Shown here in pieces: positions 15,909 through 60,330 of a stretch of DNA of 64,000 nucleotides. The stretch's first letter is position 1, and every line of letters begins with the position of its first letter. The translations under genes were made by a program, and so were the position numbers. Source of the DNA: an uncultured bacterium (lineage in GTDB: Bacteria > Patescibacteriota > Minisyncoccia > SW-4-49-11); NCBI GenBank assembly GCA_937864235.1, contig CALMJI010000018.1, forward strand, positions 73,955-137,954. The letters are read 5' to 3'. Below the pieces are notes generated by a model. The model worked only from the letters and a program-made list of their open reading frames with translations. It had not been told where the DNA came from and did no database searches.

Positions 15909-15909
15909 A

Positions 15910-19480: not shown

Positions 19481-19485
19481 TTCCA

Positions 19486-26192: not shown

Positions 26193-26220
26193 ATTTTTCT
26201 TTCCTATCTACAAACCTAAT

Positions 26221-27291: not shown

Positions 27292-27374
27292 ATAAAATAA
27301 TTAAATCATTAATTCAATCTAATTGTATCATAAATGATACAATTAAGCAATTGCAGTGATATAATTAAATATCG

Positions 27375-27680: not shown

Positions 27681-27810
27681 AATTTTGACAAAATCAAACA
27701 ATAGAGTTATTATTATTATATATTCGGCATTAGCCGCGACCCTCTTGAAATATAGAGGGGTTATAAATAGGTAGACTAAGAGATCCTGGGCTACCTATTT
27801 TATATTATAA

Positions 27811-27990
27811 CTACTTACCCTCTGATTTAGCTTGTTTTTCCTTCATCATCTGCTCATATTTTCTAAGCATACGATTCTGATCCTCTGAAGATTGTTCAAC
27901 AGCTTTATATACAGCTCTTCTTTGGTTCTCCTCACTAAATAGTTCCATTAGGTATTCTCTATTCCTTTGCTCTTCTTTTACCTTGTCCAT
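27811..27990 (-). CDS. small charged helical protein downstream of the zeta-like gene (possible antitoxin or partner)
   Basis: 59-aa ORF (MDKVKEEQRNREYLMELFSEENQRRAVYKAVEQ...) translated by me and absent from the supplied track; start lies 21 nt after the zeta-like stop; analogous to the small ORF at 37417-37623. Confidence 0.3.
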   Translation of the reverse strand: MDKVKEEQRNREYLMELFSEENQRRAVYKAVEQSSEDQNRMLRKYEQMMKEKQAKSEGK

Positions 27991-28010
27991 ACTTGTTATA
28001 TTAATTATAC

Positions 28011-28832: not shown

Positions 28833-28895
28833 ATTATATTTTTGATTCTTATCTATCTAGTATATCCTAAATATTTTAGTAAAGCAAAAACTCCT
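28833..28895 (-). promoter_or_regulatory. conserved promoter/5' leader module (copy 3, on the zeta-like gene)
   Basis: See 25187-25250. Confidence 0.55.
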
Positions 28896-29150
28896 GTCCT
28901 AAAATTCCCCTCTTTTGGCAATCCGCCTACCTACGGCAGGTAAACCTTGGGAGGAGAGGGGTGGACAGCTTCGCTGGACGGGGTGGAGTATTTTATACTT
29001 TTCTCTTGCCCTTCTGTCCCCCTTTGCCTGCCTGCGGTAGGCAGGGAGGGGGTGCCTGCAAGGTGGGGGTGGATGTTCTCTTTCTGTTCCCCAGTGGACT
29101 ACCCCTTCCCTCCCCTTTTACGATAAAAAGAATACCCAAGATAGCCATTG
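28893..29150. repeat. GC-rich modular intergenic repeat
   Basis: Modules shared with 27375-27680. Confidence 0.8.
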
Positions 29151-29153
29151 AAA

Positions 29154-30806: not shown

Positions 30807-30825
30807 CTAAATATTCTTCATAACA

Positions 30826-33105
30826 TCAGAATTTTTTTATAGCAGCCCTCATTTTTTTACGGCTCAAGTTATAGCCAATATATCCAAGGCTTAACACCAA
30901 AGTAGTGCCAGAAATTGTATATAGTATATTATTGTATCTAATAGGTTCAAATACTAAATCTAGTTCTAAATTAATACTTCCATCTTGATTAAGAGTATAT
31001 CCTTGATTATTCTTTATAATATCTTCATAGTTAATATAAAAACTATTTGCATAATCAAATTTTTTTGTGTTTTTAAAGATATTATAATCTATATCCTTAT
31101 TAGATAATCTCCACATTTTATGATATATGTCTAAGAAATTAAGATATGAATCAGATTTTAAATTTTCTATATAAATTTTATAATGTCCTTCATTAATTCT
31201 TTCATATGTAATATTATCATTATATTCTCTACTCAATTCATTCAAACTATCACTAAGATGAATTTTATTATAAGAATAGTCTTTATTGATATTATATAAT
31301 GAGTATCTACCAAAATCTCTAACCTTATCACCTAATAATTTATCTTTTATCTCTTGCTGTACCGCATACAAGTCTCCTGATGATCTGTAGCTATAAACAT
31401 AACTATCTTTAATTTCAGTAGGTAAGTCATTATAAACAATAATATAATTTACATTCATCTTAGCAAAAAAATTCAATAAATGTTCATAATCTTTATTTAA
31501 TATTTTATCTCCAATATTTTCACCCTGTGATAAAAATCCTAATATCCCAGTAAAATCAGTTTTATTAGACACAACCTTAAGTGGCGACACCCCAAAATAA
31601 AACCCATTTTTATTACTCACATCCTGAATGAATACATAATTAGCTTTATTTAATGGATACCATAAATACTTACCATTATTATCCTCATTGTCTTTTATAA
31701 AATTAGCCAAATCTATAAAATCGCTATTAAGTTCATTTACTTTTGGATATATATTTTGTGTTGTCCATATAGGTAGATTAAAGTAATCACCTCTGAAAAA
31801 AGGTATAGAATTTAATAGTATGACTAGAATAAATATAAAATAAAGTATATTTTTATAAAAAATTTTTAGATCAGCTATTATATATAATGATATAGCAAAT
31901 AAAAATGCATATATAAATGCCATTGATATAGCAAATTTATCATACATATTTCTAAAGAGTGTAAATAGAGGGATTTTTTCACTCAAGAATATAAATATAT
32001 TTATACCCTCTTTCCCAATATTAGCCGTATATAAATATAGTATTATTAAAAATATTAATAAAGAATAAATATATATAGTATGTTTTTTTATTTTTGCTCT
32101 AAAAAATATTATAGGGGCTAAGATTATTATTAAATAGATATAATTAAAGTTAAAAAACTTTAGATGCCATCCCTCATAGATTGATAATGTGTTCCAAGAA
32201 AAATCTTTTTGTATAGAATAATGTGGCAAATTTAATAATGGATATAATACATTATTATTTTTTGAAACCGATATTATTGTATTTTTATTTGCTTCTATAA
32301 ATTCCTGAGAAGTTAGAGAATTAACTATATCATTATCTTTAATATCATTATTTCTAGAGTTTAGTAGATGATATATCCAATATATATTTAACAATAATAA
32401 TATTATTATGAATATGAATAGGTGCTTGAGAAATATTTTATAATCTTTTTTAATTAAATATATAATTACTGGTAAAGATGTAATTGTTAAAGCCAAAGCC
32501 CATGGCACAGACAATATCAAAGTACTAAATATACTTAGTATTATTGTACTAAGTAAGGTATAAATATATTTGTTTTCAAGAACTCCTTTAGAAAATATAT
32601 ATAAAACTATAGGGAATATTGATATAAAATATATTGCGAATAATTGATTACCCCAACCCGATATAAAAGTAAATGTAGAAAATATATACATTAATGAGGA
32701 TATAGACTTAATGTATATGTTTTTTATATTAGTTGTTTTAATAAATATCCCAAGTAATAAGTACATGCCTAAAAAACCAAAAGCTAGGTTTAGCGACAAC
32801 ATTAAATACTGTATATTTACAGCTCCAAAAGATATAGTTTTAATAATATATATTAAAAATGAAAAAGATAGTATGTAGGATTGGGGGAAATAAAATCCTA
32901 AGCCACCTATATTATTTTCAGATATAATTGATGTAGTAAAGTTTTTAAAATATTCATACGGATACATATAATATAATCTTCCATCATCACCCCCAACAAA
33001 GTAGTCTTTTCCCCAAAATAAAATAGGTATTAATATTAAACATAAAAATACAAAAGTAATAGAAAAAACTTCTATCTTAGCTATTTTTTTGCTATCACCA
33101 AACAT
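30826..33105 (-). CDS. large polytopic membrane protein (putative polysaccharide polymerase / membrane glycosyltransferase)
   Basis: 759 aa, more than 12 TM helices, embedded in the glycosyltransferase operon. Confidence 0.45.
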   Translation of the reverse strand: MFGDSKKIAKIEVFSITFVFLCLILIPILFWGKDYFVGGDDGRLYYMYPYEYFKNFTTSIISENNIGGLGFYFPQSYILSFSFLIYIIKTISFGAVNIQYLMLSLNLAFGFLGMYLLLGIFIKTTNIKNIYIKSISSLMYIFSTFTFISGWGNQLFAIYFISIFPIVLYIFSKGVLENKYIYTLLSTIILSIFSTLILSVPWALALTITSLPVIIYLIKKDYKIFLKHLFIFIIILLLLNIYWIYHLLNSRNNDIKDNDIVNSLTSQEFIEANKNTIISVSKNNNVLYPLLNLPHYSIQKDFSWNTLSIYEGWHLKFFNFNYIYLIIILAPIIFFRAKIKKHTIYIYSLLIFLIILYLYTANIGKEGINIFIFLSEKIPLFTLFRNMYDKFAISMAFIYAFLFAISLYIIADLKIFYKNILYFIFILVILLNSIPFFRGDYFNLPIWTTQNIYPKVNELNSDFIDLANFIKDNEDNNGKYLWYPLNKANYVFIQDVSNKNGFYFGVSPLKVVSNKTDFTGILGFLSQGENIGDKILNKDYEHLLNFFAKMNVNYIIVYNDLPTEIKDSYVYSYRSSGDLYAVQQEIKDKLLGDKVRDFGRYSLYNINKDYSYNKIHLSDSLNELSREYNDNITYERINEGHYKIYIENLKSDSYLNFLDIYHKMWRLSNKDIDYNIFKNTKKFDYANSFYINYEDIIKNNQGYTLNQDGSINLELDLVFEPIRYNNILYTISGTTLVLSLGYIGYNLSRKKMRAAIKKF

Positions 33106-33734
33106 GTAGATATAAGATTTTTAAATGGTAAAAATAACGGAATTCTAAAATTTAAATTCTTATTTATTCTCCATAAATATGGAAGATATGTCATGGGATA
33201 TAGTTTTACATCTGAGAATCTATTATTCTTAAATATCCTCTCCCAATTTAAAGGATGTAATACAGATACATGAGTATCATCCGCTAAAATATTTTTTTTA
33301 TATGGATATGGAGTTGTCCCTATAAAGAAAGACTCCTGTTTTTCATCTAGTAAATTATATATATTTTTAACTGCCAAAGAAGGGTTCTCTAAATGCTCTA
33401 AAACTTCAAAAGCAAATATATATTTATATCTATTTTTTGTATTTAAATCTTCAATTCTACTATTTTTAAAAACATTTGTTTTAAAAAATAAATTAGATTC
33501 ATTGACTACTTCTTTATCTACTTCAATACCTTCATATTGATTTGGTTTGTCTAAAATATTATACCACCCTCCAAAACCAGAGCCTATTTCTAAAATATTT
33601 TTACTTTTATCTATATTTAGATTATTATTTATAAATCTATATTGTGCAGACATCCATTTACAATAATCATCAATATCTTTCTGTGTAAAAGTATATTTAT
33701 AATGTTTTTTAAAATAACCCTTATAATTTTCCAT
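33081..33734 (-). CDS. class I SAM-dependent methyltransferase
   Basis: Motif I ILEIGSGFGGW and post-I acidic residue. Confidence 0.7.
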   Translation of the reverse strand: MENYKGYFKKHYKYTFTQKDIDDYCKWMSAQYRFINNNLNIDKSKNILEIGSGFGGWYNILDKPNQYEGIEVDKEVVNESNLFFKTNVFKNSRIEDLNTKNRYKYIFAFEVLEHLENPSLAVKNIYNLLDEKQESFFIGTTPYPYKKNILADDTHVSVLHPLNWERIFKNNRFSDVKLYPMTYLPYLWRINKNLNFRIPLFLPFKNLISTCLVIAKK

Positions 33735-33736
33735 AA

Positions 33737-34774
33737 TTAATTAATATCTTTATAATCACCTAATTTCCCGTTTAGTAATTTTATGTAATAATCTAGATTT
33801 GGCTCTCTTAAAAGGTATTTGTTAATTTTTTTATCAGATAGTTTTCTATTTGCTTGTATTTCTAATCTTTTTTTAATATTCTTATTTATATGTAAAATAT
33901 TCCACCAAACAGCCTTATATAGGGCTAAAAAATGCTTATTTTTTCCCTTTACCAACCAAAACAAAGATAATCCTATCATTATAATAAGATGAATAAACAA
34001 TACATAAAATAAATAAAAACCACTAAAATTTTTTATAAATGACATTATTTTATTTTTAAAATTATGAAACTGAATTACATGGTTATTAAATTTTGAAGAA
34101 GTACCCTTTTCTGCATGATAGCATGTTGAGACAGGATAATACCAACACTCATATCCACTAATCCACATTCTGTGATTTAAGTCGGTTTCTTCGTAATATG
34201 CCCAGAAATCATCATCAAAAGCTCCTATTTCATCTAAAACAGATTTTCTCATAAACACTGAAGCTGCTTTAGTGGAAAACACCTTGTATGTCTGATTATA
34301 TTTTTCTAAGTCAGCTGATTTATTAGATCCATAATGATATAATAAAGTAGAGTTAGACCAAAAACTACCAGCTGAATCAATTTTATTATCCTCATTCATA
34401 AGCTGAATTTTTGTTTGTATTGTAGCAATTTTATCAGACTTTTCAAAAAACTTAATGGTTTTTTCTATAATATCTTTCTCTACCCAAGTATCATTATTTA
34501 GTAAATATAAATATTCACCTTTGGCTTCTTTTATACCGATATTATTTCCGCCTGCAAAACCAGAATTTTCTTTATGTTTTATAATTTTAATTCTTTTGTC
34601 TTTATAATTTGTTTCTAAAAAATCTATACTATCGTCACTAGAGTTATTATCTACAAAGATAATTTCAAAGTTTTTGTATGTTTGATTTAATAAAGAATCG
34701 AAACATTTCTTTAGCCACTTCTGACCGTTGAAATTAACTATTATCACCGATACTAATGGGTCTGCTTTACTCAC
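33737..34774 (-). CDS. family 2 glycosyltransferase
   Basis: VSVIIVNFNGQKWLKKCFDSLLNQTY...DNNSSDDS GT2 signature. Confidence 0.8.
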   Translation of the reverse strand: MSKADPLVSVIIVNFNGQKWLKKCFDSLLNQTYKNFEIIFVDNNSSDDSIDFLETNYKDKRIKIIKHKENSGFAGGNNIGIKEAKGEYLYLLNNDTWVEKDIIEKTIKFFEKSDKIATIQTKIQLMNEDNKIDSAGSFWSNSTLLYHYGSNKSADLEKYNQTYKVFSTKAASVFMRKSVLDEIGAFDDDFWAYYEETDLNHRMWISGYECWYYPVSTCYHAEKGTSSKFNNHVIQFHNFKNKIMSFIKNFSGFYLFYVLFIHLIIMIGLSLFWLVKGKNKHFLALYKAVWWNILHINKNIKKRLEIQANRKLSDKKINKYLLREPNLDYYIKLLNGKLGDYKDIN

Positions 34775-34783
34775 AAAAATGTT

Positions 34784-35884
34784 TTAATTAATAATTTTTA
34801 TAAAATCTTTATAACTTTGTTCAAAAGTTATAGTTTTACTAAATTTATGACCTTCTTGTCTTAGTTTAGCATATAATTTTTGATCTGAGAATAGTTTGGT
34901 TATGTTTTGGGCTAGATTTGCTGGAGTGTTGGTGCTACAGACTAATCCTGTCTGATTATGGATGACTGAGTCTCTGAGACCGTCTACATCATAGACTATG
35001 GCTGGGGTGCCTTGTGAATTGGCTTCCGTGACTATAAGTCCCCATCCTTCTTTGACTGAGGTGACTAGGATTATATGGGATTGTTGCATTAATTCTATTT
35101 TCTTTTGTTTGGAGACTTTGCCTAGATATTGTATGTCTTTTTTGTATTCGGATTTTTGTATTTCTTGTAAAAATTCTTGTCCATAGGGATCATTGCTATC
35201 TCCTGCTATTAACAGTTCTAGATTTGGTATGGATTGTTTGGCTAGATTATAGGCTTGGAGTATGTCTTTGGTTCTTTTCATGGCTCGTATTGAACCTAGG
35301 CTTAGTATTGTGGGGTTGGGGTATTTGGTGATTGTGTCTAAGTTGTCTACTGGTTCTATTTCTATTCCTTCGCTGATTATTTGGATATCTTTGAATCCTA
35401 ATTTTTGTAATTCTTGCTTGGTGCTATTGGAGATGGTGATGACTTTTATATCATTTAGTAGTCTTAGGTAAATTGGTTCTATGATATACCCGATCCAGTT
35501 CAATGGGAAAAACATCTGATAAAACCATATTTCTCGACAGAGTTGATGGATGAATAGGATGTTTTTTTCTTTTACATAAAATTTAGCAAAAAATGGGACA
35601 GTGTTGATTTCATCTATTACTAAATCTGCCCAGCCTTTGAGATGTTTCTGATAATATTGGTAGGCCTGCCAATATACTGTCCATCTCCCGCCTACTCGGA
35701 TTATTTCATAGCCGTCTATAACTTCTCTTGCTTCTGCCCCTGTGTAACCTCCTACTATTAGTTTGACTTGGTGCCCGTCTTGTACTAGTCTTTTGGCTAA
35801 TTCTTCATTGACTATTTCAGCTCCTCCTGTGAGAGGATTTTTTTTATCTTTCCATGTGAGCCAGAGAATCTTTTTCTTTTTCAT
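34784..35884 (-). CDS. family 4 (GT-B) glycosyltransferase
   Basis: EGWGLIVTEANSQGTPAIV E-X7-E-like motif. Confidence 0.8.
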   Translation of the reverse strand: MKKKKILWLTWKDKKNPLTGGAEIVNEELAKRLVQDGHQVKLIVGGYTGAEAREVIDGYEIIRVGGRWTVYWQAYQYYQKHLKGWADLVIDEINTVPFFAKFYVKEKNILFIHQLCREIWFYQMFFPLNWIGYIIEPIYLRLLNDIKVITISNSTKQELQKLGFKDIQIISEGIEIEPVDNLDTITKYPNPTILSLGSIRAMKRTKDILQAYNLAKQSIPNLELLIAGDSNDPYGQEFLQEIQKSEYKKDIQYLGKVSKQKKIELMQQSHIILVTSVKEGWGLIVTEANSQGTPAIVYDVDGLRDSVIHNQTGLVCSTNTPANLAQNITKLFSDQKLYAKLRQEGHKFSKTITFEQSYKDFIKIIN

Positions 35885-35892
35885 AAATTTAT

Positions 35893-36816
35893 CTATCCTC
35901 TACTCTTAAAGTATTCTACAGTTTGGAGTAGGCCTTGTTGTAGATTGGTTTGGGGTTGCCAGTTGATAGCTTGGTGGATTTTGTCGTATGAGAGGCAACT
36001 ATGTTGTTGTTCTCCTAGTTTGGCTTCTCTATTTTGTCTGGTGATGGTGGTACTGGTGAGTTGATGTAGGATATCAAAGATTTGGTTGATATTGGTTTGG
36101 GTGGCGGTGGCTATATTGTAGCTTCCTGAGAGGTCGCCTAGTATGGCTTGGATATTGGCTTCTACTACGTCTTGTACGTATACAAAGTCTCGGGTGTTGT
36201 TGCCGTCTCCGTTTATATAGCATTGTTGGTTTTGGAGCATTTTGCTGATGAATAGGGCGATGACTCCGGCTTCTCCTTGGGTGTTTTGTCTTGGGCCGTA
36301 GACATTGGAGTATCTAAGGGCGGTGTAATCTATATTATAGATAGTTTTGTAGTAGTGGGCGTATTTTTCCATTACTAATTTGGCTATGCCATAGGGTGAG
36401 ATAGGGTCGGTGGGATGTGTCTCTGGGGTTGGGAGCATGTCTGTGTCTCCGTATATGGCTCCACCTGAGGAGGCGAAGACTACTTTTTTGACTCCGTTTT
36501 TGTGGGCGGCTTCGAATAGGTTGATGGTGCCGATTATGTTGACTTGCGCGTCGTATTGTGGGTCTTGAACTGATTTTCTGACGTCTAGTTGGGCTGCTTG
36601 ATGGCAGATGACTTCGATTTGATGTTGTTGTATTATTTTGTTGACTTGTTCTGCATTGGTGATGTCTTCTTGATAAAAGACTGCTTGGGGGTTGATAAGA
36701 TCTGTCTGTCCTGTGACTAGGTTATCTATGATGATGACTTGATGTCCCTTGGCGATGAGTTGGTCTACTATATGTGAGCCGATGAATCCTGCTCCTCCTG
36801 TGACTAGTATGTTCAT
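35893..36816 (-). CDS. NAD-dependent epimerase/dehydratase (UDP-sugar 4-epimerase-like)
   Basis: TGGAGFIGSH Rossmann motif and YxxxK catalytic pair (SPYGIAK). Confidence 0.85.
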   Translation of the reverse strand: MNILVTGGAGFIGSHIVDQLIAKGHQVIIIDNLVTGQTDLINPQAVFYQEDITNAEQVNKIIQQHQIEVICHQAAQLDVRKSVQDPQYDAQVNIIGTINLFEAAHKNGVKKVVFASSGGAIYGDTDMLPTPETHPTDPISPYGIAKLVMEKYAHYYKTIYNIDYTALRYSNVYGPRQNTQGEAGVIALFISKMLQNQQCYINGDGNNTRDFVYVQDVVEANIQAILGDLSGSYNIATATQTNINQIFDILHQLTSTTITRQNREAKLGEQQHSCLSYDKIHQAINWQPQTNLQQGLLQTVEYFKSRG

Positions 36817-36917
36817 ATATTTTTAGGGTTATTGTTTTATTATAGCATGGGTTGGGGTGTGTGTGAATTATAAATGGTGAATTATGAGTTTGTAGGGGCT
36901 AAAATGCAAAAGCAAAA

Positions 36918-37390
36918 CTCAATCCACCCCGTCCAGCGTAGCTGTCCACCCCTCGAGAGGGGAATTAGCTCAGTCCTACTCCGGCCTATCGGCCACCTCC
37001 CCCGAGGGAGGACAAGAGGGCAAGTTGCAAAGTACATCCACCCTCCCCCTTCGGGGACTCCCTCCTAAGGGAGACAGAAGCTCTGAAGGCCAGAAATCCA
37101 ATATTCAAAATACACTCCACCCCGTCCAGCATAGCTGTCCACCCCTCAAGAGGGGAATTTAGCTCAGGCTGCAAAATACGGTCCTCCTCCGCCGTCGCAA
37201 ATGGGATTTGCTCCTGTGAAACCTCTCGGTTTCCCAACCTTCCTCAACGGGAAAACTTCTGTTTTCCCAACCCCTTTCCCAGACTTTCAGTCTACTTCGT
37301 GCCACCTCCCCCAAGGGAGGACAAGAGGGCAAGTTGCAAAGTATCAAATACAGGCGACTGAGAGGTCGCCCCTACGAGATGGGAGGGTAG
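36918..37390. repeat. GC-rich modular intergenic repeat (about 470 bp, two tandem composite copies)
   Basis: Module set similar to 38420-38645; contains an inverted copy of the GCAAAT..ATTTGC / gtttcccaaccttcctc module seen at 24430-24540. Confidence 0.8.
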
Positions 37391-37416
37391 AAATTTTATA
37401 ATTAAAGCTTATTATA

Positions 37417-37623
37417 TTAAATAGTTTTTTTCTTAATTTTTGCCCATTTTTTCATATTGTCTTGTTGTTCTTTATTTGCAAATTCAGATACTTTTTGTAA
37501 CCAATAAAGTCGCTCTTCTAGCGGAGCTTTATTCATTATATAATCAATAGTTGGTCGTTTTTCTCGACTCTTAAAATTCAGTGATTTAGTTATATTCTTA
37601 TAAATATCTAATACTTTTTTCAT
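37417..37623 (-). CDS. small helical protein overlapping (4 nt) the 3' end of the zeta-like gene
   Basis: 68 aa; translationally coupled; weak resemblance to the 59-aa ORF at 27811-27990. Confidence 0.35.
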   Translation of the reverse strand: MKKVLDIYKNITKSLNFKSREKRPTIDYIMNKAPLEERLYWLQKVSEFANKEQQDNMKKWAKIKKKTI

Positions 37624-38324
37624 AATAATTGTTCTAATTCTTCTTTATTATATACTTTTTGTAATGCTTCATCAAGTTGTTTTATATTTGTAATTGGAAT
37701 AAGGTTAAGATTTTCAGTGGATTTTATATCTACTCGATTGAATAGTAATATTTCTACTTCTTCATTAGAAAAAGTTTCTCTTATACTTCTTACTGTTTGA
37801 TATGCTCCAATATATTTTTGGATAAAAGTTTCTTTGAGAATACGGCGACCTTCTTCTTTTTCTCTATTTTGAGTATATTGCCAAGCATATTCGGGTTGCA
37901 GGTAAATATAAATAACAGTGACTTTTCTTTGCCTTCTGAGTGATCTTATGATATTTTCTTTAGCTCTATGTTTATCTGAGAATGTGCCATCTAGGATAAA
38001 GGAGATATTTTGGTCTAAAAGCCTATCATGAATATAACTTACAAGTTTACTCATAGCTTTTTGGAAGAGATGAGAGTTATTACCTTCATATCCTGGCAAT
38101 ATAGATCGGTATAAATCTCCATCCAGATGTAAAATATTGCCATCTAATAATTCCACTACTCCCCTAGCCCATTCGGTCTTACCTGCACCGGGAGAACCTG
38201 CCATAAAAATTGAAAGTGGCACATCTACTGAAGTATAATCTAGGAGTAAATCTTTAGTGATATTTTGTTTGTGTTTGCGGATATAGTTAATAGCTTCTTG
38301 ACTAATATCTTTTTCTTTAGCCAT
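37620..38324 (-). CDS. zeta-toxin-like P-loop kinase (second paralog)
   Basis: Walker A FMAGSPGAGKTE; 234 aa. Confidence 0.65.
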   Translation of the reverse strand: MAKEKDISQEAINYIRKHKQNITKDLLLDYTSVDVPLSIFMAGSPGAGKTEWARGVVELLDGNILHLDGDLYRSILPGYEGNNSHLFQKAMSKLVSYIHDRLLDQNISFILDGTFSDKHRAKENIIRSLRRQRKVTVIYIYLQPEYAWQYTQNREKEEGRRILKETFIQKYIGAYQTVRSIRETFSNEEVEILLFNRVDIKSTENLNLIPITNIKQLDEALQKVYNKEELEQLL

Positions 38325-38419: not shown

Positions 38420-38645
38420 AAAACTCAATCCACCCCGTCAGTCAAACCTACCACCCCTCGAGAGGGGAATTTAGCTCAAGTCCTCCTCCGTCACCTACGG
38501 TGACACCTCCCCCAAGGGAGGACAGAAAATAGAAGTCCAGAAACACATCCACCCTCCCCCTTCGGGGACTCCCTACAAAGGGAGACAAAAGCTCAGTCCA
38601 CACCCGTCGACTTCCTCGCTACCCTCGCCAGCGAGGGACAGAAAA
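38420..38645. repeat. GC-rich modular intergenic repeat
   Basis: Shares more than 100 nt with 36918-37140. Confidence 0.8.
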
Positions 38646-38659
38646 CATTCACAAATTAA

Positions 38660-42558: not shown

Positions 42559-43284
42559 ATGATTGAAATCAAAGGTGTATCCAAAAAATTCAAAGATAAA
42601 ACTATTATTCATAGTTTGGATTTGTCTATCAAAAAAGGTGAATTTTATGCCCTAATTGGTCCTAATGGAGCTGGTAAGAGCACTTTGATCAAATTATTAT
42701 CTGGATTGTTACAGCCTACTAAGGGAGAAATTCTTTTGGATGGGATTAATATTGTAGAAAACCCAAAAGAGGCTAAGGCTTTGATTGGATATATTCCTGA
42801 CGAGCCGACTGTGTGGGATGGAATGACTGGATTTGAATTTATGAACTTTGTGGGTGCATTGTATAATATCCCTGCTAATGAAAGAGAAAAAGATATCAAA
42901 AAACTATTGAAAATTTATAATATAACAGGCACAGAGCATCAATTATATCAGGATTATTCTCGTGGAGTGAGGCAAAAATATTCTATTCTAGCAGCTCTAT
43001 TACATAATCCTAGTATATTATTGATTGACGAGCCTATTGTTGGTCTTGATCCTATTAGTATTGATATTACTAAAAATATTCTGGATGAATTTGTAAAGGA
43101 TGGTGGGACGGTCTTGATGGTGACTCATACTTTATTTGTAGCTCAAGAATTAGCAACTAGAATTGGTCTGTTTGAAAAGGGTAAAATAAAGATTGAAGGT
43201 ACTTATAAGGAGTTGGTAGATAAAGCTCATTTACCTGCTAAGACCTCTCTAGATGATGTTTATAAAAATTATTTAGCTAAATAA
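42559..43284 (+). CDS. ABC transporter ATP-binding protein
   Basis: Walker A GPNGAGKST, signature YSRGVRQK, Walker B LLIDEP. Confidence 0.85.
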   Translation: MIEIKGVSKKFKDKTIIHSLDLSIKKGEFYALIGPNGAGKSTLIKLLSGLLQPTKGEILLDGINIVENPKEAKALIGYIPDEPTVWDGMTGFEFMNFVGALYNIPANEREKDIKKLLKIYNITGTEHQLYQDYSRGVRQKYSILAALLHNPSILLIDEPIVGLDPISIDITKNILDEFVKDGGTVLMVTHTLFVAQELATRIGLFEKGKIKIEGTYKELVDKAHLPAKTSLDDVYKNYLAK

Positions 43285-43289
43285 ATACT

Positions 43290-44966
43290 ATGTCAGAATC
43301 ATTTGGATTATTATTGTCTTATCCTGGACAAGTTATCAAAAGGTACTTGGCTCGTGAAAAATTTACTCGTATCTTTGCTATTTTTATATTATTACTGATT
43401 ATTCTATTTATAGGGGTTTCAATTTATGTTACCACAATTGAAGGACTAAACTTTATTAGTAGAGATATTGAATTGAGAGATGCTTTATACTTTTATATAG
43501 CGCAACTGTTTTATTTACTTGTTTTTGTATTAAGTTTTGGGAATAGCATTCTAGTAATTGCTGCCTCTTTTGCTCGTAAATCTCATCAGTGGATTATGGC
43601 TACACCGTCCTTCTCTATTATGGCTTTTGTGAATTTATTCCAATTGTTAGCTTCTAGTCTGTGGATTTTTCTTGCTGTTATTATTCCTGTCTTAATGGGA
43701 ATTGCTCAATTTATGGGAGTGGATGGATTACAATTGTTTTTGAGTTTTGTATTGACTACAGCTTTGATTATTGTTGAGAGTATTTGTGGGGTTCTGGCTT
43801 ATATGCTTAGTGTTTATCTGTTGAGATATTTATCTACATTAATTGGTCGAAATATTGTTTCTCAGTCTCTGGCTATTATTTTGCTTGTAATTAGCTCAGT
43901 TCTGATGATTGCTTTATTCTGGAGAATTGCTATTCCTCAAGATTTTGTAAAATTCTTTGATGGTAATTATATTGTCCAAATGCAAACTATGAAGGAGCAG
44001 TTAATTTATCTACCTACTTTTGGTATAGCTCAAGTTTTACATGATTTATTGTTCTGCTCCAATATATTTGGTACTACTTATACTATAATCTTTACTGGTT
44101 TAACTTTGGGGTTATTGATAACTGTATATGTTTTATTAGATAAAAGTTATCTGGTAATGTGGCAATTATTACAGGAGGGTAATTATATAGCTGGACAGGA
44201 TAATAAGAGAATCAATACCTATAAATCCTATAATTTCCCAGCTATCAATGCAGTTCATAATATTATTGATAAAGAATTATTGTTAATCTGGAGAGATAAA
44301 AAAAATCTACTTTGGTTTGTAATTGTAATTGGATTATGGTTAGCTCAGACTGCGGTTAGCTGGAGAGTTACTGCTAATGCTAACAATTATGGTGATGGCT
44401 ATATCTTTCCTGACTTTGTATATGCTTTGATTCTAGCTATTGGGCTATACTTTATTAGTGCCCTGTCTCTGAGATTTGTATTTCCTACCTTTAGTGCAGA
44501 GAGAAAAGTAGCTTGGATTCTAGGAGTTGCTCCAATTTCTCCTTGGAATATTGCAGTTGGTAAATTATTGATTTATACAGGAATATTTTTATTCTTAGGT
44601 AGTCCGATTTTGATTGCTAATTTTGTGATATTAGGTTTTGGATTCTTCCCTGCTCTATTGTATTGGATTGTATTTAGCTTATCTGTAATTCTAATAGTAT
44701 TGCTCGCTATCTATTTGTCTATTGCCTATCCTAATAGATTTTCTAGTGACCCTGAAACTTTATCCACTACCCTACCTGGATTAGCCTTTACTAGCTTGGC
44801 CTTGGGTGGAACAATTATTATTGCTAATATTATGTATTTGGTTCTGTCTAATGTAGATTTGGTAGTACTTCTAATATTATTGATTACTGTTCTAAATTTG
44901 TTGCTTACAAGTTTGACATATAATGCTAGTGAGAAATTTGAATATGCTGGTGAAATTATTGCCTAA
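43290..44966 (+). CDS. large ABC-exporter-like permease (polytopic membrane protein)
   Basis: 558 aa, more than 10 TM helices, immediately downstream of the ATPase. Confidence 0.5.
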   Translation: MSESFGLLLSYPGQVIKRYLAREKFTRIFAIFILLLIILFIGVSIYVTTIEGLNFISRDIELRDALYFYIAQLFYLLVFVLSFGNSILVIAASFARKSHQWIMATPSFSIMAFVNLFQLLASSLWIFLAVIIPVLMGIAQFMGVDGLQLFLSFVLTTALIIVESICGVLAYMLSVYLLRYLSTLIGRNIVSQSLAIILLVISSVLMIALFWRIAIPQDFVKFFDGNYIVQMQTMKEQLIYLPTFGIAQVLHDLLFCSNIFGTTYTIIFTGLTLGLLITVYVLLDKSYLVMWQLLQEGNYIAGQDNKRINTYKSYNFPAINAVHNIIDKELLLIWRDKKNLLWFVIVIGLWLAQTAVSWRVTANANNYGDGYIFPDFVYALILAIGLYFISALSLRFVFPTFSAERKVAWILGVAPISPWNIAVGKLLIYTGIFLFLGSPILIANFVILGFGFFPALLYWIVFSLSVILIVLLAIYLSIAYPNRFSSDPETLSTTLPGLAFTSLALGGTIIIANIMYLVLSNVDLVVLLILLITVLNLLLTSLTYNASEKFEYAGEIIA

Positions 44967-45989: not shown

Positions 45990-46100
45990 AATACTGTCCT
46001 ACCTTGGGGGAGGACAGAAATAAACTGCCCCTCGCTTTGTAATCCGCCTTGTGAGGAGGCGAGGGTGGACCACGTCAGTGGGTGGGTGTGGACAGTTTTG
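45990..46100. repeat. GC-rich modular intergenic repeat
   Basis: CCTACC-ttgg-GGGAGG and aatccgccttgtgaggaggcgaggg modules. Confidence 0.75.
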
Positions 46101-46179
46101 GACTATGTACTAATAATAACTTTTACATCTAAAAAGAGAGATAATATCCCTCTTTTTATCTGGACTTTAGAATATAAGA

Positions 46180-48272: not shown

Positions 48273-48369
48273 ATCTGTATTCTCTTATTGATATATTATA
48301 TTTTGTATTTTTATTATAGCATAGAAAGAAAAATTTTTGAATGGGTTGTATGGTGTTTTTAAATTTCCC

Positions 48370-48750
48370 TGTCCTCCTCCGTCACTTTACGGTGCCACCT
48401 CCCCCAAGGGAGGACAGTAATTTTGTCCCTCGCCGGCGAGGGTGGCACGGAGCGCCGGGTGTGGACTTGTCTTTGATAGGTATTTTTTATCCACCCTCCC
48501 ACTACGGGTACGCCCTCCCTGCCTACCGCAGGCAGGCAAAAGGAGACAAAAAGCAGAGTTCAGGCGACTGAAAGGTCGCCCCTACGAGGACAGAATATAC
48601 TATTTAACTCTATCCACCTCCGGCCTAAAGGCAACCTCCTCCTAAGGAGGACACGATCTCCAATGCAGGACAATCCACCCCGTCAATAAAAGATTTCCAC
48701 CCCTCAATGAAATCCGCCTTGGGCGGAGAGGGGAATTTTAATATAGCCCC
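48370..48750. repeat. GC-rich modular intergenic repeat
   Basis: Modules shared with 19280-19480 and 10872-10971 (ctgcctaccgcaggcaggc, GGCAC-gga-GCGCC). Confidence 0.8.
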
Positions 48751-48755
48751 CACCT

Positions 48756-49424: not shown

Positions 49425-49471
49425 AATTAAGTTAAGTAAAGAGATATTTTATTATAAAAGAAAGTAGTTTG

Positions 49472-49544
49472 TGGACCGTACTGGGATCGAACCAGCGACC
49501 TCTTCCATGCCATGGAAGCGCGCTACCAACTGCGCCAACGGCCC
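49472..49544 (-). tRNA. tRNA-Ala (anticodon GGC)
   Basis: Hand-folded cloverleaf: acceptor GGGCCGT/ACGGTCC with the G3:U70 Ala identity pair, D-arm GCGC-AGTTGGTA-GCGC, anticodon loop AT-GGC-AT, T-arm GCTGG-TTCGATC-CCAGT; CCA not encoded. Confidence 0.8.
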
Positions 49545-49655
49545 TTTAATATTTGTATTATATCAGTATATATTATATCTGGCAATATGTATTGAGTTTG
49601 AATCTTGGCTGTATTTGTATTATAATATATATACTTATTCATTAATTTTACAATT

Positions 49656-50009
49656 ATGTCTAATAAATCTTTATTCGGGTCTATATTAGTTGGAATTGGA
49701 ATTGTGTGGTTACTTGATAGTTTTGGAGTAATTGATGCTCCTAGTTTTGGGCAGTGGTTGCCGATTATTTTGATAGCTTTTGGTGTATGGAGATTTCTGT
49801 CATCTCAGTTTAAAGCTATTGTGGAAGCTATAATCTGGATTGGATCTGGAGTAACTATTGGATTATTGCAATTAGACATCATTACTGTTAGACAACTTTT
49901 TAGAGCCTTTTGGCCTGTAATTGTGATTCTGATTGGTTTATGGGTTTTGAGTTCTGGCAATAAAAAGAGTATTGAAAAAGAAGGAGAGAAAGAGGAGAAA
50001 AAGAGTTAA
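49656..50009 (+). CDS. small membrane protein (LiaF/DUF5668-like TM region?)
   Basis: 117 aa, 4 TM helices, WPVIVILIGLWVL motif; located just upstream of the heliorhodopsin gene. Confidence 0.45.
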   Translation: MSNKSLFGSILVGIGIVWLLDSFGVIDAPSFGQWLPIILIAFGVWRFLSSQFKAIVEAIIWIGSGVTIGLLQLDIITVRQLFRAFWPVIVILIGLWVLSSGNKKSIEKEGEKEEKKS

Positions 50010-50121: not shown

Positions 50122-50150
50122 TTGACATTTTACAACTTTTGTTTCATAAT
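50122..50150 (+). promoter_or_regulatory. sigma70-like promoter of the heliorhodopsin gene
   Basis: TTGACA-17 nt-CATAAT located 30 nt upstream of the ATG. Confidence 0.5.
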
Positions 50151-50180
50151 ATAAGAGGTTATTAAATAAATATTAAATAT

Positions 50181-51011
50181 ATGATTGGTTTCCGTGCACA
50201 CAATGGTTTTGCCCGCCTTAAAATGTATAATGGTATTATGGGTGCCTTGCACTTCTTTCAAGCTGGTTTGATGCTATATGTATCTAAAGAAGCTTTATTC
50301 CCTGTAACGACTAATTACCTTGACTTTGATTCTGCTACTCGTAGTGCAGCTCCTGTTACAGAGAAGTTTTTTGATATAAATCTTGGTCCAGCAGTAGCTT
50401 TGTTTTTGTTATTATCTGCTATTGCCCACTTTATTACAATATTACCGAATGTTTATCCTTGGTATATCAAGAATCTTAAAAATCATATCAATGTCATCCG
50501 ATGGTATGAATATGCTCTATCTTCTTCTGTGATGATTGTACTTATTTCTATTTTAGTAGGAATTTATGACTTCTCTACTCTATTATTGTTATTTGGAATC
50601 AATGCTAGCATGAACTTGTTTGGGCTAATAATGGAGCAGATTAATCAGGATCGTAAAGATGTTAATTGGCTTCCTTACATCTTTGGATGTATTGCTGGGA
50701 TTATACCTTGGATTGTAATTTTCCTACATTTCCAAGGAGCTATTTCATCCGCTGAGGTGGAAGTTCCTACTTTTGTCTACTTTATTGTATTCTCTCTATT
50801 CGCGGTATTCAATGTATTTGCACTTAATATGTTCTTACAGTATAAGAAAATTGGTCCTTGGAAATCTTATGTATTCGGAGAAAAATTCTATATTTTCTTA
50901 TCCCTATTTGCTAAGTCTCTCTTAGCTTGGCAAGTGTGGTCAGGGACTCTAAGAGGTACTGAGAATGAAGTATCTGCTATTATCTCTAATATATTTAGTA
51001 TATTTTCATAA
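50181..51011 (+). CDS. heliorhodopsin (7TM retinal protein, inverted topology)
   Basis: Blocks as I recall them from heliorhodopsin 48C12: RLKMYNGIMGALHFFQ (N-terminal), IRWYEYALSSSVMIVLI, FGINASMNLFG, FGCIAGIIPW, and retinal-Lys block LFAKSLLAWQVWSGTL in TM7. Confidence 0.75.
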   Translation: MIGFRAHNGFARLKMYNGIMGALHFFQAGLMLYVSKEALFPVTTNYLDFDSATRSAAPVTEKFFDINLGPAVALFLLLSAIAHFITILPNVYPWYIKNLKNHINVIRWYEYALSSSVMIVLISILVGIYDFSTLLLLFGINASMNLFGLIMEQINQDRKDVNWLPYIFGCIAGIIPWIVIFLHFQGAISSAEVEVPTFVYFIVFSLFAVFNVFALNMFLQYKKIGPWKSYVFGEKFYIFLSLFAKSLLAWQVWSGTLRGTENEVSAIISNIFSIFS

Positions 51012-51036
51012 AATATTTAGTATAATACTCTAGCAA

Positions 51037-51066
51037 ACAAAAAACCCGGTATGAGCCGGGTTTTTT
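51037..51066. terminator. bidirectional rho-independent terminator between convergent genes
   Basis: AAAAAACCCGGtatgaGCCGGGTTTTTTG hairpin flanked by A- and T-runs. Confidence 0.7.
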
Positions 51067-51078
51067 GTTATCGAGGAC

Positions 51079-51330
51079 TTATTCTCGAGGCTTAGCAGGT
51101 TGGATAGAGATTTCTCTTTCTAAAAGAGATGCTCCATCTAACTGTTGTATTGCTCTTTCAGCTTCCTCTTCAGTGGCAAATTCTACAAATCCATAACCTT
51201 TGCTACGATTTTGCTCTTTGTCAAAGATGATTTTTGCTGAAACTACAGTTCCAACAGTCTCAAAAAGAGATTGTAAGTCCTGATTAGTTGCTTTGTACGC
51301 AATATTTCGTACAAATAAATTCTTGTTCAT
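51079..51330 (-). CDS. RRM-type RNA-binding protein
   Basis: RNP2 LFVRNI and RNP1 KGYGFVEF motifs. Confidence 0.85.
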   Translation of the reverse strand: MNKNLFVRNIAYKATNQDLQSLFETVGTVVSAKIIFDKEQNRSKGYGFVEFATEEEAERAIQQLDGASLLEREISIQPAKPRE

Positions 51331-51460: not shown

Positions 51461-53065
51461 TTAATTTGAATTACAACTAGTAGCCCATAATCCTTTTTTA
51501 TTTACTTTAGCCTCTTGTTCTAAAGCTTTATAATTAGCTTGGCTCTGATAAGAGGCACCATTATATGTATATTCCTTAGCAAAACCTTCTTTTAATAGAT
51601 ATTCTTGCAAAGATCTCCCATCTTCTAAATACACATATCTTAGGAGTCTATTATAGTCATCTCTATCTTCTTTGAGAGGATCTTTGACTAAAGAGACTCG
51701 ATTACTAGCGATTAGATTTTTTAGAGCCTTATATGCCTCTACCCCATAACAATAGTTGGGGCTGATAAAACTATCCAGTTCTGGAGCATCTATGCCCAAT
51801 AATTTCACCCCTTCAATTTTACCATTGATATTAACTACTATATCATCTCCATCATTGACCGTTATGACATTATATTTATCATTGGATATATCGCTAATTA
51901 CATTTCCTGTGGGGTATTGATTGAATTCATTCACTCTGAGAGGAATAATATCTGACCATTTATATCCGAGACTTAGAAATATATTGGGACTCCCAATTGG
52001 CTTTTTATAATCATTGGCAATTAAATATACTCCTCCATTGTAAGAAACTACTGTTCCGTCTTGAAACAATTTATTGGCTCCAACTGGGTATTGTTGTAAT
52101 ACATTGGCAGGGATTTTTATAATTTCATCCCACCTATAGTTTAATTTTTCAAATATAAATGGGCTGGGTATATATCTAAGTACGCCTGTTGTGTCTACTA
52201 CATAAGTAGCTGAGCTTCCTGTGGGTGAGATTAAAACTCTAGAACGATAATTTTTTATTTCCGATATGGGTTGACCTTCTGGAATTATAGATAGCTCATA
52301 ATCTGTAGCTCTTCTAATTTGCCCCCACTTAAAACCATAACTCTCAAACACGGCCGGTGAGGTAATTGGTAATCGTTGATTTTTTTGCATCAGGAATACT
52401 CCTGTCGCACTAGATATTAGCAAGCCGTCAGGATAATATTCATCACTCCCTCGAGGGTAAGAATCTATGATTACTTGTGAAACTGGAATTAAATACTCCC
52501 ATCTATACCTTGAGTCAAAAATTAATGGAGATGGAATATATCTTCTTAAACCTGATTCCAACTTATATACAGCTCCTCCGGGCGCTAATAATAAACTTCC
52601 ATCTGGATAATTATCTTCTTCTCTTAAGCTATCTCCTTTTTGATGTAGGGATAATTCTGCATTGCTGACTGGGATAATATTATTCCATTTATATCCTTTA
52701 GATAAAAATGCTTGTGGGGATGTTATTGGTCTGACTCTAGCATTAGAGACTACATATACTGTTCCATTATTAGATAACAAAGATCCATCTCTAAATGTCA
52801 TAGGAGTTCCTAAGGCAATTGCATCTAATTCTACTGGCGATACTTCAATCAAATCTTGCCAACGGAATTGTGAAATTAGCATGTTGGGCGACTCTATAGG
52901 CCTTTTTGTGTTATTTTCTATATAATATACCTTTGGATTATTAACTGATTTTACTATAATTCCATTGGGATAATTTGGTATTTGTCTGGCTGATATATTA
53001 TTTGGCAAAATAAAATTTAGGGTTATAAAGGTAATGACTAGCAATACTTTATATTTAATTTGCAT
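51461..53065 (-). CDS. secreted thermonuclease (SNase-like) with six N-terminal ~58-aa repeats
   Basis: Signal peptide; C-terminal SNase blocks (VKLLGIDAPEL...RLLRYVYLEDGRSLQEYLLKEGFA); six tandem repeats of the pattern G.vY.v.n..rRpI.SP..F.s.gYkW..IipVs..el..yp.G. Confidence 0.7.
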   Translation of the reverse strand: MQIKYKVLLVITFITLNFILPNNISARQIPNYPNGIIVKSVNNPKVYYIENNTKRPIESPNMLISQFRWQDLIEVSPVELDAIALGTPMTFRDGSLLSNNGTVYVVSNARVRPITSPQAFLSKGYKWNNIIPVSNAELSLHQKGDSLREEDNYPDGSLLLAPGGAVYKLESGLRRYIPSPLIFDSRYRWEYLIPVSQVIIDSYPRGSDEYYPDGLLISSATGVFLMQKNQRLPITSPAVFESYGFKWGQIRRATDYELSIIPEGQPISEIKNYRSRVLISPTGSSATYVVDTTGVLRYIPSPFIFEKLNYRWDEIIKIPANVLQQYPVGANKLFQDGTVVSYNGGVYLIANDYKKPIGSPNIFLSLGYKWSDIIPLRVNEFNQYPTGNVISDISNDKYNVITVNDGDDIVVNINGKIEGVKLLGIDAPELDSFISPNYCYGVEAYKALKNLIASNRVSLVKDPLKEDRDDYNRLLRYVYLEDGRSLQEYLLKEGFAKEYTYNGASYQSQANYKALEQEAKVNKKGLWATSCNSN

Positions 53066-56393: not shown

Positions 56394-56429
56394 ATAAAAT
56401 ATATTTTTTGTTTCAAAACACAAACACTA

Positions 56430-56562
56430 CGGGCGACTGAGAGGTCGCCCCTACGAAGCACAAAATACATCCACCCCCGCCTTTCAGGCTTCCCCCTCCG
56501 AAGGGGGACAAAAAATCAACCACTCCACTACAAAATAAATGTCGGCGAGGTCGCCGACTCTA
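56430..56562. repeat. GC-rich modular intergenic repeat
   Basis: gggcgactgagaggtcgccc and GTCGGCGAggTCGCCGAC hairpins. Confidence 0.75.
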
Positions 56563-57872: not shown

Positions 57873-58325
57873 TTAAACTAAAGCTAGAATTTGACTAGCA
57901 TGCTTGAGTGGATTAACTTTCTCAAAATGTTGAATCAACTTCCCCTCTTCATCAATTAGGAAAGTGTCCCGTTGTATTCCCATATATTTTTTCCCAAACA
58001 TTGACTTTTCTTTCCAAACTCCATAGGCTTGGACGACAGTTTTCTCAGTATCAGCCAAGAGCGGAAAATTTAGATTATGCTTCTCGACAAATTTCTTATG
58101 AGATTTGACATCATCTACACTTACTCCTAACACTACAATTCCTTTAGCCTCGAGATCATTCATAGAATCTCTCATCCCCTCCGCCTGAACAGTACATCCA
58201 GGAGTCATATCCTTGGGGTAAAAGTACAAAACTACCTTTTTACCTCGGTATTGAGACAAAGTGTGACTCTTCTCATCTTGGTCTATTAGAGTAAAATCTG
58301 GGACTAATTCTCCTACCTGCAACAT
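57873..58325 (-). CDS. bcp: peroxiredoxin Bcp (thiol peroxidase)
   Basis: FYPKDMTPGCTVQA peroxidatic Cys motif. Confidence 0.85.
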   Translation of the reverse strand: MLQVGELVPDFTLIDQDEKSHTLSQYRGKKVVLYFYPKDMTPGCTVQAEGMRDSMNDLEAKGIVVLGVSVDDVKSHKKFVEKHNLNFPLLADTEKTVVQAYGVWKEKSMFGKKYMGIQRDTFLIDEEGKLIQHFEKVNPLKHASQILALV

Positions 58326-59738: not shown

Positions 59739-60141
59739 TCCGCGATAGCTCAGCGGTAGAGCAGTCGGCTGTGAATGCCTTCTTGAGTCGTCGTAAAATA
59801 ATTATATTTTTATGTCTGACAAAAGAAAATATTCTGATCGTGCTGAATATCTTTTTTAGAAATTCACTCCGATCTAGTCGCAGCCTCTTCTGGTAACAGA
59901 AGTTGAAACACGAGGTGAATTGCTGGAAGCCTAAGGTAGTAATACTAAGGCAATCAGCAGCCAAGTCTAGCAAAACTAGAAAGGTTCAGAGACTATCCCA
60001 AAAGGGAGTACATTGTAGCAATACAGTGGAAGCGCCTCGCTCCATCAAAACGATGGATGATGATATAGTCCACGCCTATTAGAAATATTAGGACAAGGTG
60101 TAACCGATTGGTCGTAGGTTCGAATCCTACTCGCGGAGCCA
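59739..60141 (+). tRNA. tRNA-Asn (anticodon GUU) interrupted by an intron in the anticodon loop (exons 59739-59772 and 60101-60141, CCA encoded)
   Basis: Exons fold as a cloverleaf: acceptor TCCGCGA/TCGCGGA (U1-A72, discriminator G73 as in E. coli tRNA-Asn), D-arm GCTC-AGCGGTA-GAGC, anticodon stem GTCGG/CCGAT, spliced loop CTGT|TAA giving anticodon GTT, variable loop TGGTC, T-arm GTAGG-TTCGAAT-CCTAC. Confidence 0.7.
59773..60100 (+). ncRNA. group I (IC3-like) self-splicing intron inside tRNA-Asn
   Basis: 5' exon ends in U and the intron ends in G; IGS GCAGCC (59879-59884) complements exon GGCUGU; P2 hairpin TCTTCTGgtaaCAGAAG; core blocks GTGAATTGCTGGAAGCCTAAGG and GGCAATCAGCAGCCAAGTC resemble Azoarcus/Tetrahymena P3-P4 and J6/7; CAGAGACTA (P7 5') paired with TAGTC (60066-60070); P8 TCCCaaaaGGGA; P9 hairpin before omega-G. 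Confidence 0.6.
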
Positions 60142-60174: not shown

Positions 60175-60194
60175 ATATTTCTTGTCTTTTGAGA

Positions 60195-60319
60195 GAGTAG
60201 GATGAGAACCTGGGGAAGGGGTCGGGAAACGAGAGTTTCCAGTGGCGGAGGTATTGGAACCGAGGGGTTCCAAGGAGTGAATCCCATTCACGACTGGTTT
60301 GCAATCCTACTCGCGGAGC
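60195..60319. repeat. GC-rich repeat module followed by a partial direct copy of the tRNA-Asn 3' end (60295-60319)
   Basis: GGTTTGCAATCCTACTCGCGGAGCA versus tRNA GGTTCGAATCCTACTCGCGGAGCCA. Confidence 0.7.
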
Positions 60320-60330
60320 AAAATCCCTTT

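Follow-up and report, generated by a model that had tools for sequence, protein, structure and literature searches.

The 64,000-nt stretch of DNA analysed here (the window), from an uncultured bacterium, contains an intact gene for a heliorhodopsin (HeR), a membrane protein that senses light and binds retinal, with a promoter and a terminator of its own. The coding sequence (50181..51011, + strand) specifies a protein of 276 amino acids; from the positions of the promoter and the terminator, the locus 50122-51066 extends from the -35 box to the terminator. The product is a canonical HeR of the TaHeR/48C12 branch. In our preferred reading, to which we assign a probability of about 0.6, it would be a photosensory or regulatory HeR of the TaHeR/48C12 type that obtains retinal from outside and acts on some other protein. 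As a protein, it is an ordinary new addition to a known family, with all features canonical and little added as a discovery. It is distinctive only in an 18-residue C-terminal tail shared by its clade, in the SLFAK variant of the motif in transmembrane helix 7 (TM7) and in the lineage of its host. The physiological role of HeRs is still unsettled, with several unrelated partners reported, and here, in a bacterium whose free-standing genome is among the smallest, the HeR is as strongly conserved as a glycolytic aldolase.

Identity, conservation and expression signals of the heliorhodopsin

The gene was identified by Pfam and NCBIfam searches, structure comparison and residue mapping. A first-pass annotation, made from the letters alone, had called it a heliorhodopsin on the basis of four sequence blocks, and all four are present: RWYEYALSSSVMIVLI (residues 107-122), FGINASMNLFG (138-148), FGCIAGIIPW (168-177) and AKSLLAWQVWSGTL (244-257). 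The search with Pfam family PF18761 that it had proposed gave E = 1.1e-95 (320 bits, cutoff 26.7) over the whole profile (1-242 of 242), and the NCBIfam equivalog model NF038020 ('heliorhodopsin HeR') was matched with 327.7 bits against a cutoff of 100. The best matches among solved structures were TaHeR (6is6, E = 1.8e-76) and 48C12 (6su3, E = 1.6e-60). The Schiff-base Lys that had been placed in TM7 is K245, which aligns with K241 of 48C12 and is invariant in 24 homologs. With the PF18761 match and the conserved TM7 Lys, the identification therefore stands. Public databases already contain this very protein under the label 'hypothetical protein', and an identical protein is encoded on at least 16 public contigs.

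Aligned with 48C12, H24, H83, E110, S241 and K245 correspond to H23, H80, E107, S237 and K241, and all five residues are invariant in the 24-homolog alignment (53-96% identity). The counter-ion E110 aligns with the position mutated in the TaHeR E108D entry 7clj, and the SxxxK motif of TM7 is S241-L-F-A-K245. Residues lining the lateral fenestration have been defined for 48C12 and TaHeR (bioRxiv 10.1101/2025.11.27.691015); by alignment, Y166/C170/G173/F210/N211/A214 correspond to F162/C166/G169/F206/N207/A210 of 48C12, with Tyr at the first position as in TaHeR.

TaHeR (Thermoplasmatales archaeon SG8-52-1; PDB 6IS6 and 7U55, E108D 7CLJ) is 50-51% identical over the whole domain and shares the fold, the counter-ion Glu and the SxxxK motif. 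The likeness extends to a Met after the Asn in TM6 (N216-M217 here) and to the Tyr at the first aromatic fenestration position (Y166). TaHeR, however, has an archaeal host, whereas the HeR described here is bacterial and carries the extra 18-residue C-terminal tail (259-276); its E-F loop is four to five residues longer, and its D-E loop reads NQDRKDVN instead of NQTTQNTN. 48C12, the founding HeR from a freshwater actinobacterial fosmid (PDB 6SU3, 6SU4 and 6UH3), is 44-46% identical. Its H23, H80, E107, S237 and K241 and the fenestration residues C166, G169, F206, N207 and A210 are conserved, but Q213 is replaced with M217 and F162 with Tyr, the A-B loop is two residues longer here, and the host differs.

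An AlphaFold2 model built on the homolog alignment (mean pLDDT 84.6) showed seven transmembrane helices and a long beta-hairpin in the A-B loop (strands 39-50 and 55-67). Employing Foldseek, we superimposed the model on TaHeR 6is6 with a target-normalised TM-score of 0.92 and a root-mean-square deviation of 1.7 A. Solved HeRs were matched with E values of 1e-23 to 1e-17 (TM-score 0.88-0.94), type-1 rhodopsins with 1e-5 or weaker. The C-terminal tail particular to the clade (residues 259-276) is predicted to be helical with low confidence (pLDDT 59-69). On the predicted helices, about 11-12 Lys/Arg residues fall in the N-terminus and the B-C, D-E and F-G loops, and four in the A-B, C-D and E-F loops and the C-terminal tail. 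By the positive-inside rule, this distribution is consistent with the inverted topology of the family, with the N-terminus inside and the C-terminus outside, which the protein probably has.

Between the window and the second subclade of the same lineage, the HeR is 81% identical, and the class I fructose-bisphosphate aldolase encoded in the same block of genes is 78-80% identical. Three comparisons gave the HeR gene a dN/dS of 0.07-0.13, and the closest pair, of low divergence, gave 0.23. Because dN/dS is low and the identity is like that of the aldolase, the gene is under strong purifying selection and is clearly functional. At all the clade loci examined its open reading frame (ORF) is uninterrupted, and full or nearly full length is also seen in more than 30 other homologs of at least 75% identity. 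That the gene might be a decaying, non-functional remnant is hardly credible: an intact ORF across the clade at dN/dS 0.07-0.23 effectively refutes it by selection, the catalytic and chromophore residues are all invariant, and the promoter and terminator are conserved.

The promoter is of the sigma-70 type (50122..50150, + strand), with the -35 box TTGACA at 50122-50127, a 17-nt spacer and the -10 box CATAAT at 50145-50150, matching the consensus at 11 of 12 positions. It had been noted in the first-pass annotation, and comparison of six orthologous loci bears it out: all six have TTGACA at -35 and either CATAAT or CATACT at -10. The promoter is kept even where the upstream gene ends just 62 nt before the HeR start codon. 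Throughout the window, 15 sites matched at 11 or more of 12 positions, compared to 4.0 +/- 1.9 expected from first-order Markov simulations (about 4-fold enrichment). Since such matches are enriched and many of them stand just 5' of genes, the organism appears to use sigma-70-like promoters. Judged from the position of the -10 box, transcription would start at about 50157, giving a putative short AT-rich 5' leader (50157..50180, + strand). This leader, TAAATAAATATTAAATATATG, is nearly invariant across loci whose HeR proteins differ by 13-19%. No Shine-Dalgarno motif was found near the start codon.

Downstream, a bidirectional intrinsic terminator (51036..51069) is common to HeR (+ strand) and a convergent gene for an RRM-type protein (- strand). 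The hairpin, AAAAAACCCGG...CCGGGTTTTTT, has a folding energy of -22.1 kcal/mol on the + strand and -22.0 kcal/mol on the - strand (z about -6.2 and -6.5) and is flanked on both sides by A and T runs. In two relatives (L013 and L014) the stem letters differ but complementarity is kept by compensatory changes. A stem that covaries and folds at about -22 kcal/mol on both strands confirms the terminator as first annotated. A simple terminator scan did not report this hairpin, probably because the A and T runs pair into the stem.

Host lineage, retinal supply and proposed role

On the evidence of related sequences, the host is assigned to freshwater Paceibacteria of the Candidate Phyla Radiation (CPR), order SW-4-49-11, near 'Candidatus Elulimicrobium humile'. 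At NCBI, homologs that are 80-97% identical to the HeR go under names such as 'Candidatus Parcubacteria bacterium'. Its 90% cluster includes a sequence labelled 'Candidatus Elulimicrobium humile'; this freshwater species of Patescibacteria was named in bioRxiv 10.1101/826941, where the main text makes no mention of rhodopsins. The nearest HeR loci in the genome collection are from metagenome-assembled genomes of Paceibacteria. One of these, ZE-Oct18-75 (locus L015) from Chiriac et al. 2022, has an ortholog of 81% identity within the same order of genes; this genome is classified as Patescibacteria; Paceibacteria; o__SW-4-49-11, with an assembly of 0.79 Mb at 34.2% GC (PMC9166423 supplement). 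Judged from this relative, the host genome may be about 0.8-0.9 Mb, and the GC content within the window is about 23-41%; the first-pass description of a low-GC, small-genome host agrees with these values. Outside the clade, the nearest HeR is 62% identical and belongs to an unclassified bacterial bin (L016), and the nearest HeRs of other CPR bacteria (Saccharibacteria, Dojkabacteria) and of Chloroflexota are 55-56% identical.

The presence of a HeR in so small a genome had been put forward as being of interest. The host type was as described, but the finding is less novel than had been implied, because HeRs in CPR bacteria are already known from published work. Chiriac et al. 2022 (PMC9166423) reported that 86 of 1326 CPR genomes carried a total of 115 rhodopsin sequences, which, with 17 exceptions, were reverse-oriented and inferred to be HeRs, and Bulzu et al. 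2021 (PMC8612252) included Patescibacteria in their analysis of HeR gene context. The protein described here has in common with those CPR HeRs the family, the small-genome freshwater host type and the class of SxxxK motif. The motif is commonly SLVAK, SLIAK or SFVAK in CPR HeRs and SLFAK here. In the main text of PMC9166423, the classes listed with HeRs are for the most part Saccharimonadia, Dojkabacteria, ABY1 and a small number of others; Paceibacteria is not named among them.

For retinal supply, we scanned the window with Pfam, covering all ORFs of at least 200 aa and most of those of 100-200 aa. No carotenoid or retinal family (phytoene synthase or desaturase, lycopene cyclase, Blh, carotenoid oxygenase) was found in the 64 kb, a weak negative since the window is only about 7% of the genome. 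Carotenoid synthesis is not known from organisms of this kind. For this reason, and because the fenestration residues are kept, the chromophore would come from outside, either from a host cell or from the surrounding water. Jaffe et al. (PMC9296517) described rhodopsin-bearing Saccharibacteria without blh, the rhodopsins of which quickly take up external retinal; TaHeR is cited there as taking up retinal through the fenestration opening. Since synthesis of the chromophore is probably impossible for the host, this lineage may serve as a compact system for studying the partner of a HeR and retinal exchange between CPR bacteria and their hosts.

In another organism, a HeR of about 60% identity lies directly 3' of a short-chain dehydrogenase gene (L011, 6211-9275; L012, 3642-6706) and adjoins genes of the carotenoid pathway (Caroten_synth PF04240, a UbiA prenyltransferase and an amino-oxidase/CrtI-like protein). 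Some relatives thus keep pigment genes beside HeR, unlike the window.

The preferred reading, a sensory or regulatory HeR, can be put as follows. The gene would be transcribed from its own sigma-70-type promoter, with read-through from the upstream gene possible, and transcription would end at the bidirectional terminator common to the RRM gene. All-trans-retinal would enter from outside the cell via the lateral fenestration and form a protonated Schiff base with K245, for which E110 would be the counter-ion, with H24 and H83 alongside. By analogy with characterised bacterial and archaeal HeRs, the protein is most likely no ion pump; it may be a slow-cycling light sensor or regulator that alters another protein, for example in protection from light-driven oxidative stress. 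What the analysis shows is the identity, key residues, fold and selection of the HeR and the conservation of its promoter and terminator; the retinal source, the non-transport and the signalling are the steps that we infer. A sensory or oxidative-stress role has been proposed for HeRs of monoderm and CPR bacteria (PMC8612252, PMC9166423). Within 10 kb of HeR are genes for a DsbD-like protein, an HSP20 and a peroxiredoxin (57873-58325), which would lend a stress role weak support at best.

Several points weigh against this reading. Retinal binding, photocycle and non-transport would all be extrapolated from homologs that are 45-50% identical, and the retinal genes were inspected in just the 7% or so of the genome that the window represents. 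HeR neighbourhoods are highly variable: clustering of the neighbours at about 85 HeR loci gave no widely common neighbour, and the largest cluster outside the clade (proteins of about 300 aa, 6 loci), which includes the adh_short protein next to HeR in L011 and L012, matches a published class. No gene of a published partner class (glutamine synthetase, photolyase, ABC exporter, short-chain dehydrogenase and others; PMC11109279) adjoins HeR here, and no partner was identified in the analysis. In addition, a 2025 preprint argues that HeRs harvest light through a second carotenoid antenna.

Alternatively, the regulated protein might be a glutamine synthetase, a photolyase or an ABC transporter with its gene at another place in the genome; we consider this unlikely. 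Partnerships with all three are documented for other bacterial HeRs (PMC11109279 and work cited there). The predicted cytoplasmic loops are rich in Lys/Arg (K97, K100, R107, R158, K159, K222, K223 and K228, from the sequence and the model), a property tied to partner binding in PMC11109279, and ABC-transporter genes are found in the window at 42559-44966 and 15138-16815. However, genes of these classes are not adjacent to HeR; the ABC genes are 5-35 kb away in separate transcription units, and the Pfam scan found neither glutamine synthetase nor photolyase within the 64 kb.

That the protein is a light-driven or light-gated ion transporter, supplying or dissipating the membrane potential of a cell that can hardly respire, is very improbable. 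Some viral HeRs conduct protons, as cited in PMC11109279 and PMC12873467. The window contains V/A-type ATPase subunit genes (27-2029), so an ion gradient would be usable. Against this, the protein groups with TaHeR (50% identity) and 48C12 (45%), the reference HeRs, neither of which is known to transport ions. According to the 2025 preprint, the viral subfamily that does transport ions lacks the fenestration motif, which is present here.

The LiaF-like neighbour

Immediately upstream of HeR on the same strand is a gene (49656..50009, + strand) for a LiaF-TM/LiaI-like protein of 117 aa with four hydrophobic segments and a Lys/Glu-rich C-terminal tail, preceded by a promoter-like site, TTGAAT-17-TATAAT (49598-49626). 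Residues 6-104 matched PF22570 (LiaF-TM) with E = 4.2e-14 (53.6 bits, cutoff 27), and PF18917 was matched with 45.8 bits; together with the four hydrophobic segments, these matches support the earlier description of a LiaF-like protein with four transmembrane segments. Neither an NCBIfam match nor any Pfam domain beyond LiaF-TM/LiaI-like was found for it. In Bacillus subtilis LiaF, a cytoplasmic C-terminal LiaF domain follows the transmembrane region. The 117-aa protein stops 13 residues past TM4, and this domain is absent. The gene is flanked by tRNA-Ala, histidine phosphatase, HeR and RRM protein genes. No kinase or response regulator gene was found within 6 kb, so that liaS and liaR are not adjacent, and no PspA/LiaH homolog adjoins it; the closest histidine kinase gene of the window (7324-8937) is at a distance of 40 kb. 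Lacking the C-terminal LiaF domain and adjacent two-component genes, the product is a stand-alone LiaF-TM/LiaI-like protein and not LiaF. It shares with the LiaFSR/LiaIH system of Bacillus the transmembrane domain (PF22570, PF18917), but the C-terminal LiaF domain, liaS/liaR and PspA/LiaH of that system are all missing here.

The two genes belong to a block with the order Ser hydrolase, peptidyl-prolyl isomerase, histidine phosphatase, tRNA-Ala, LiaF-like, HeR, RRM, aldolase, phosphatase and Exo_endo_phos. The tRNA-Ala(GGC) gene (49471..49544, - strand) is divergent from the LiaF-like gene. The RRM gene (51079..51330, - strand), convergent to HeR, encodes an 83-aa RNA-binding protein whose identity of 95-96% is the highest in the block.

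HeR and the upstream LiaF-TM protein might form a two-protein light-signalling module, in which the small membrane protein would be a transducer or anchor, like Htr for sensory rhodopsins or LiaI/LiaF in envelope stress, and light would be coupled to a membrane or envelope response. We regard such a module as improbable. The LiaF-like gene lies directly 5' of HeR, in the same strand and order, in the window, in L001-L008, L010 and L013-L015, and in 9 of 9 metagenome loci (L096-L104). A terminator scan of the window detected none between the two genes, and in relatives the gap between them is as short as 62 nt, taken up by the HeR promoter. The LiaF-like gene is intact and under purifying selection (dN/dS 0.10-0.35). 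LiaF-TM is not among the ten HeR-neighbour classes of Cho et al. 2024 (PMC11109279), and none of the papers searched links it to HeR; a partnership would therefore be new.

The whole block of about 10 kb, however, is collinear across the clade, and the adjacency of HeR and the LiaF-like gene therefore carries little independent weight. HeR always has its own conserved promoter, and the spacer between the two genes ranges from 62 to 1410 nt. In one locus (L103), a gene for a 388-aa HopA1-like protein (857-2023, + strand) is interposed; its match to the HopA1 effector family is weak (PF17914, 26 bits versus a cutoff of 22.7). The LiaF-like protein is also the fastest-evolving of the block, with 47-49% identity where HeR has 81%. 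Outside the clade, a LiaF-like ORF was found within 6 kb of HeR in 0 of 77 loci (Chloroflexota, other CPR, Thermoplasmatota and others), and the nearest outgroup HeR (62% identity, L016/L093) has no LiaF-like neighbour.

A general association between HeR and LiaF-TM proteins was rejected: all ORFs at 92 HeR loci were searched with phmmer and a hidden Markov model of 7 clade sequences, and matches were confined to the SW-4-49-11 clade, the best hits elsewhere (E > 0.3) being unrelated small hydrophobic ORFs. A metagenome scan with the LiaF-like alignment, which reached the clade and distant loci but not intermediate relatives, found HeR downstream at all 9 of the clade loci that it returned and at none of the 5 distant, GC-rich ones. 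These distant LiaF-TM homologs (L105-L109) have no HeR nearby, with 3 of the 5 contigs shorter than 2.6 kb. A word-indexed search, too insensitive to reveal the wider family, returned 26 proteins of at least 63% identity, each with both LiaF Pfam domains and apparently all of the same clade; the two NCBI locus tags among these homologs adjoin HeR locus tags. Using the flanking aldolase (66% identity), we located two sister-lineage loci in which HeR and the LiaF-like gene are both absent from the corresponding site. Joint absence would suit a module, but gene order there is rearranged, so nothing can be inferred about joint gain or loss.

The adjacency behind the suggestion in the first-pass annotation that the neighbour could be a partner is thus seen only within one collinear clade and is lacking at the 77 other HeR loci and at the nearest outgroup HeR. 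Given the collinearity, the separate promoter, the variable spacer and the lack of association at other HeR loci, the partner idea is a low-probability, lineage-specific hypothesis. Its strongest form, in which the LiaF-TM protein is the membrane transducer of HeR and the pair was gained and kept as a cassette beside tRNA-Ala, is a long shot. If true, it would provide the first small-membrane-protein partner of a HeR, in a genome of about 0.9 Mb with a traceable downstream pathway.

Other features of the window

Between the RRM gene and the aldolase gene, a gene at 51461-53065 (- strand) encodes a protein of 534 aa in which a long N-terminal part without a Pfam match precedes a staphylococcal-nuclease domain (PF00565) at the C-terminus. 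It is absent in L005, L010, L014 and L015; L013 has an extra 1.6 kb or so at this position, presumably the same gene.

At the start of the window and far from HeR are the genes for the B and D subunits of a V/A-type ATPase (27-2029, + strand). The histidine kinase gene (7324-8937, - strand), also far from HeR, encodes a protein with a 7TM region at its N-terminus (HisKA_7TM, a match under the Pfam cutoff). The ATPase and the kinase are relevant to how this minimal cell handles energy and signals.

About 20 intergenic islands of at least 55% GC are scattered in this 34% GC genome, as mosaics of shared GC-rich hairpin modules of 17-47 nt. Examples are at 19375-19495, 24407-24610, 25227-25473, 26023-26208, 27371-27677, 28890-29128, 36904-37390, 38421-38652, 45991-46112, 48358-48687 and 56414-56556. 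The islands vary in presence between near-identical relatives and matched no Rfam family; they look like a mobile or expanding repeat family. The island near the HeR locus, at 48341-48755 on its upstream side, takes the form of a different mosaic in L006 and is missing from L005 and L013, even though the HeR proteins of L005 and L006 are identical. We considered whether this GC-rich stretch might be a regulatory RNA of the locus and rejected the idea, as it has no Rfam match, is absent in close relatives with the same HeR and is a member of the dispersed repeat family.

Interleaved with the islands is a cluster of toxin-type genes (25584-38324), comprising PemK/MazF (25584-25982), Fic (26221-27291) and two Zeta-toxin-domain genes (28011-28832 and 37620-38324). 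A very AT-rich stretch at 30-34 kb (23% GC) encodes proteins of 759 and 550 aa without Pfam matches, adjoining glycosyltransferases, and may be a variable or mobile surface-glycan island.

A tRNA-Thr(UGU) gene (59739-60141, + strand) has its anticodon loop split by a 328-nt group I intron (Rfam RF00028, 86.5 bits). It was missed by ARAGORN at default settings and was reported as tRNA-Thr(tgt) i(33,328) with the intron option. Group I introns in bacterial tRNA genes have been described for Leu, fMet, Arg and Ile, and a tRNA-Thr as the intron host in a CPR bacterium may merit attention. Directly 3' of this gene is a 136-nt GC-rich island (60186-60321) without an Rfam match, which ends in a degenerate copy of the tRNA 3' end, AATCCTACTCGCGGAGC (about 60304-60320). 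The island could be a remnant of integration at the tRNA gene or another copy of the GC-rich repeat.

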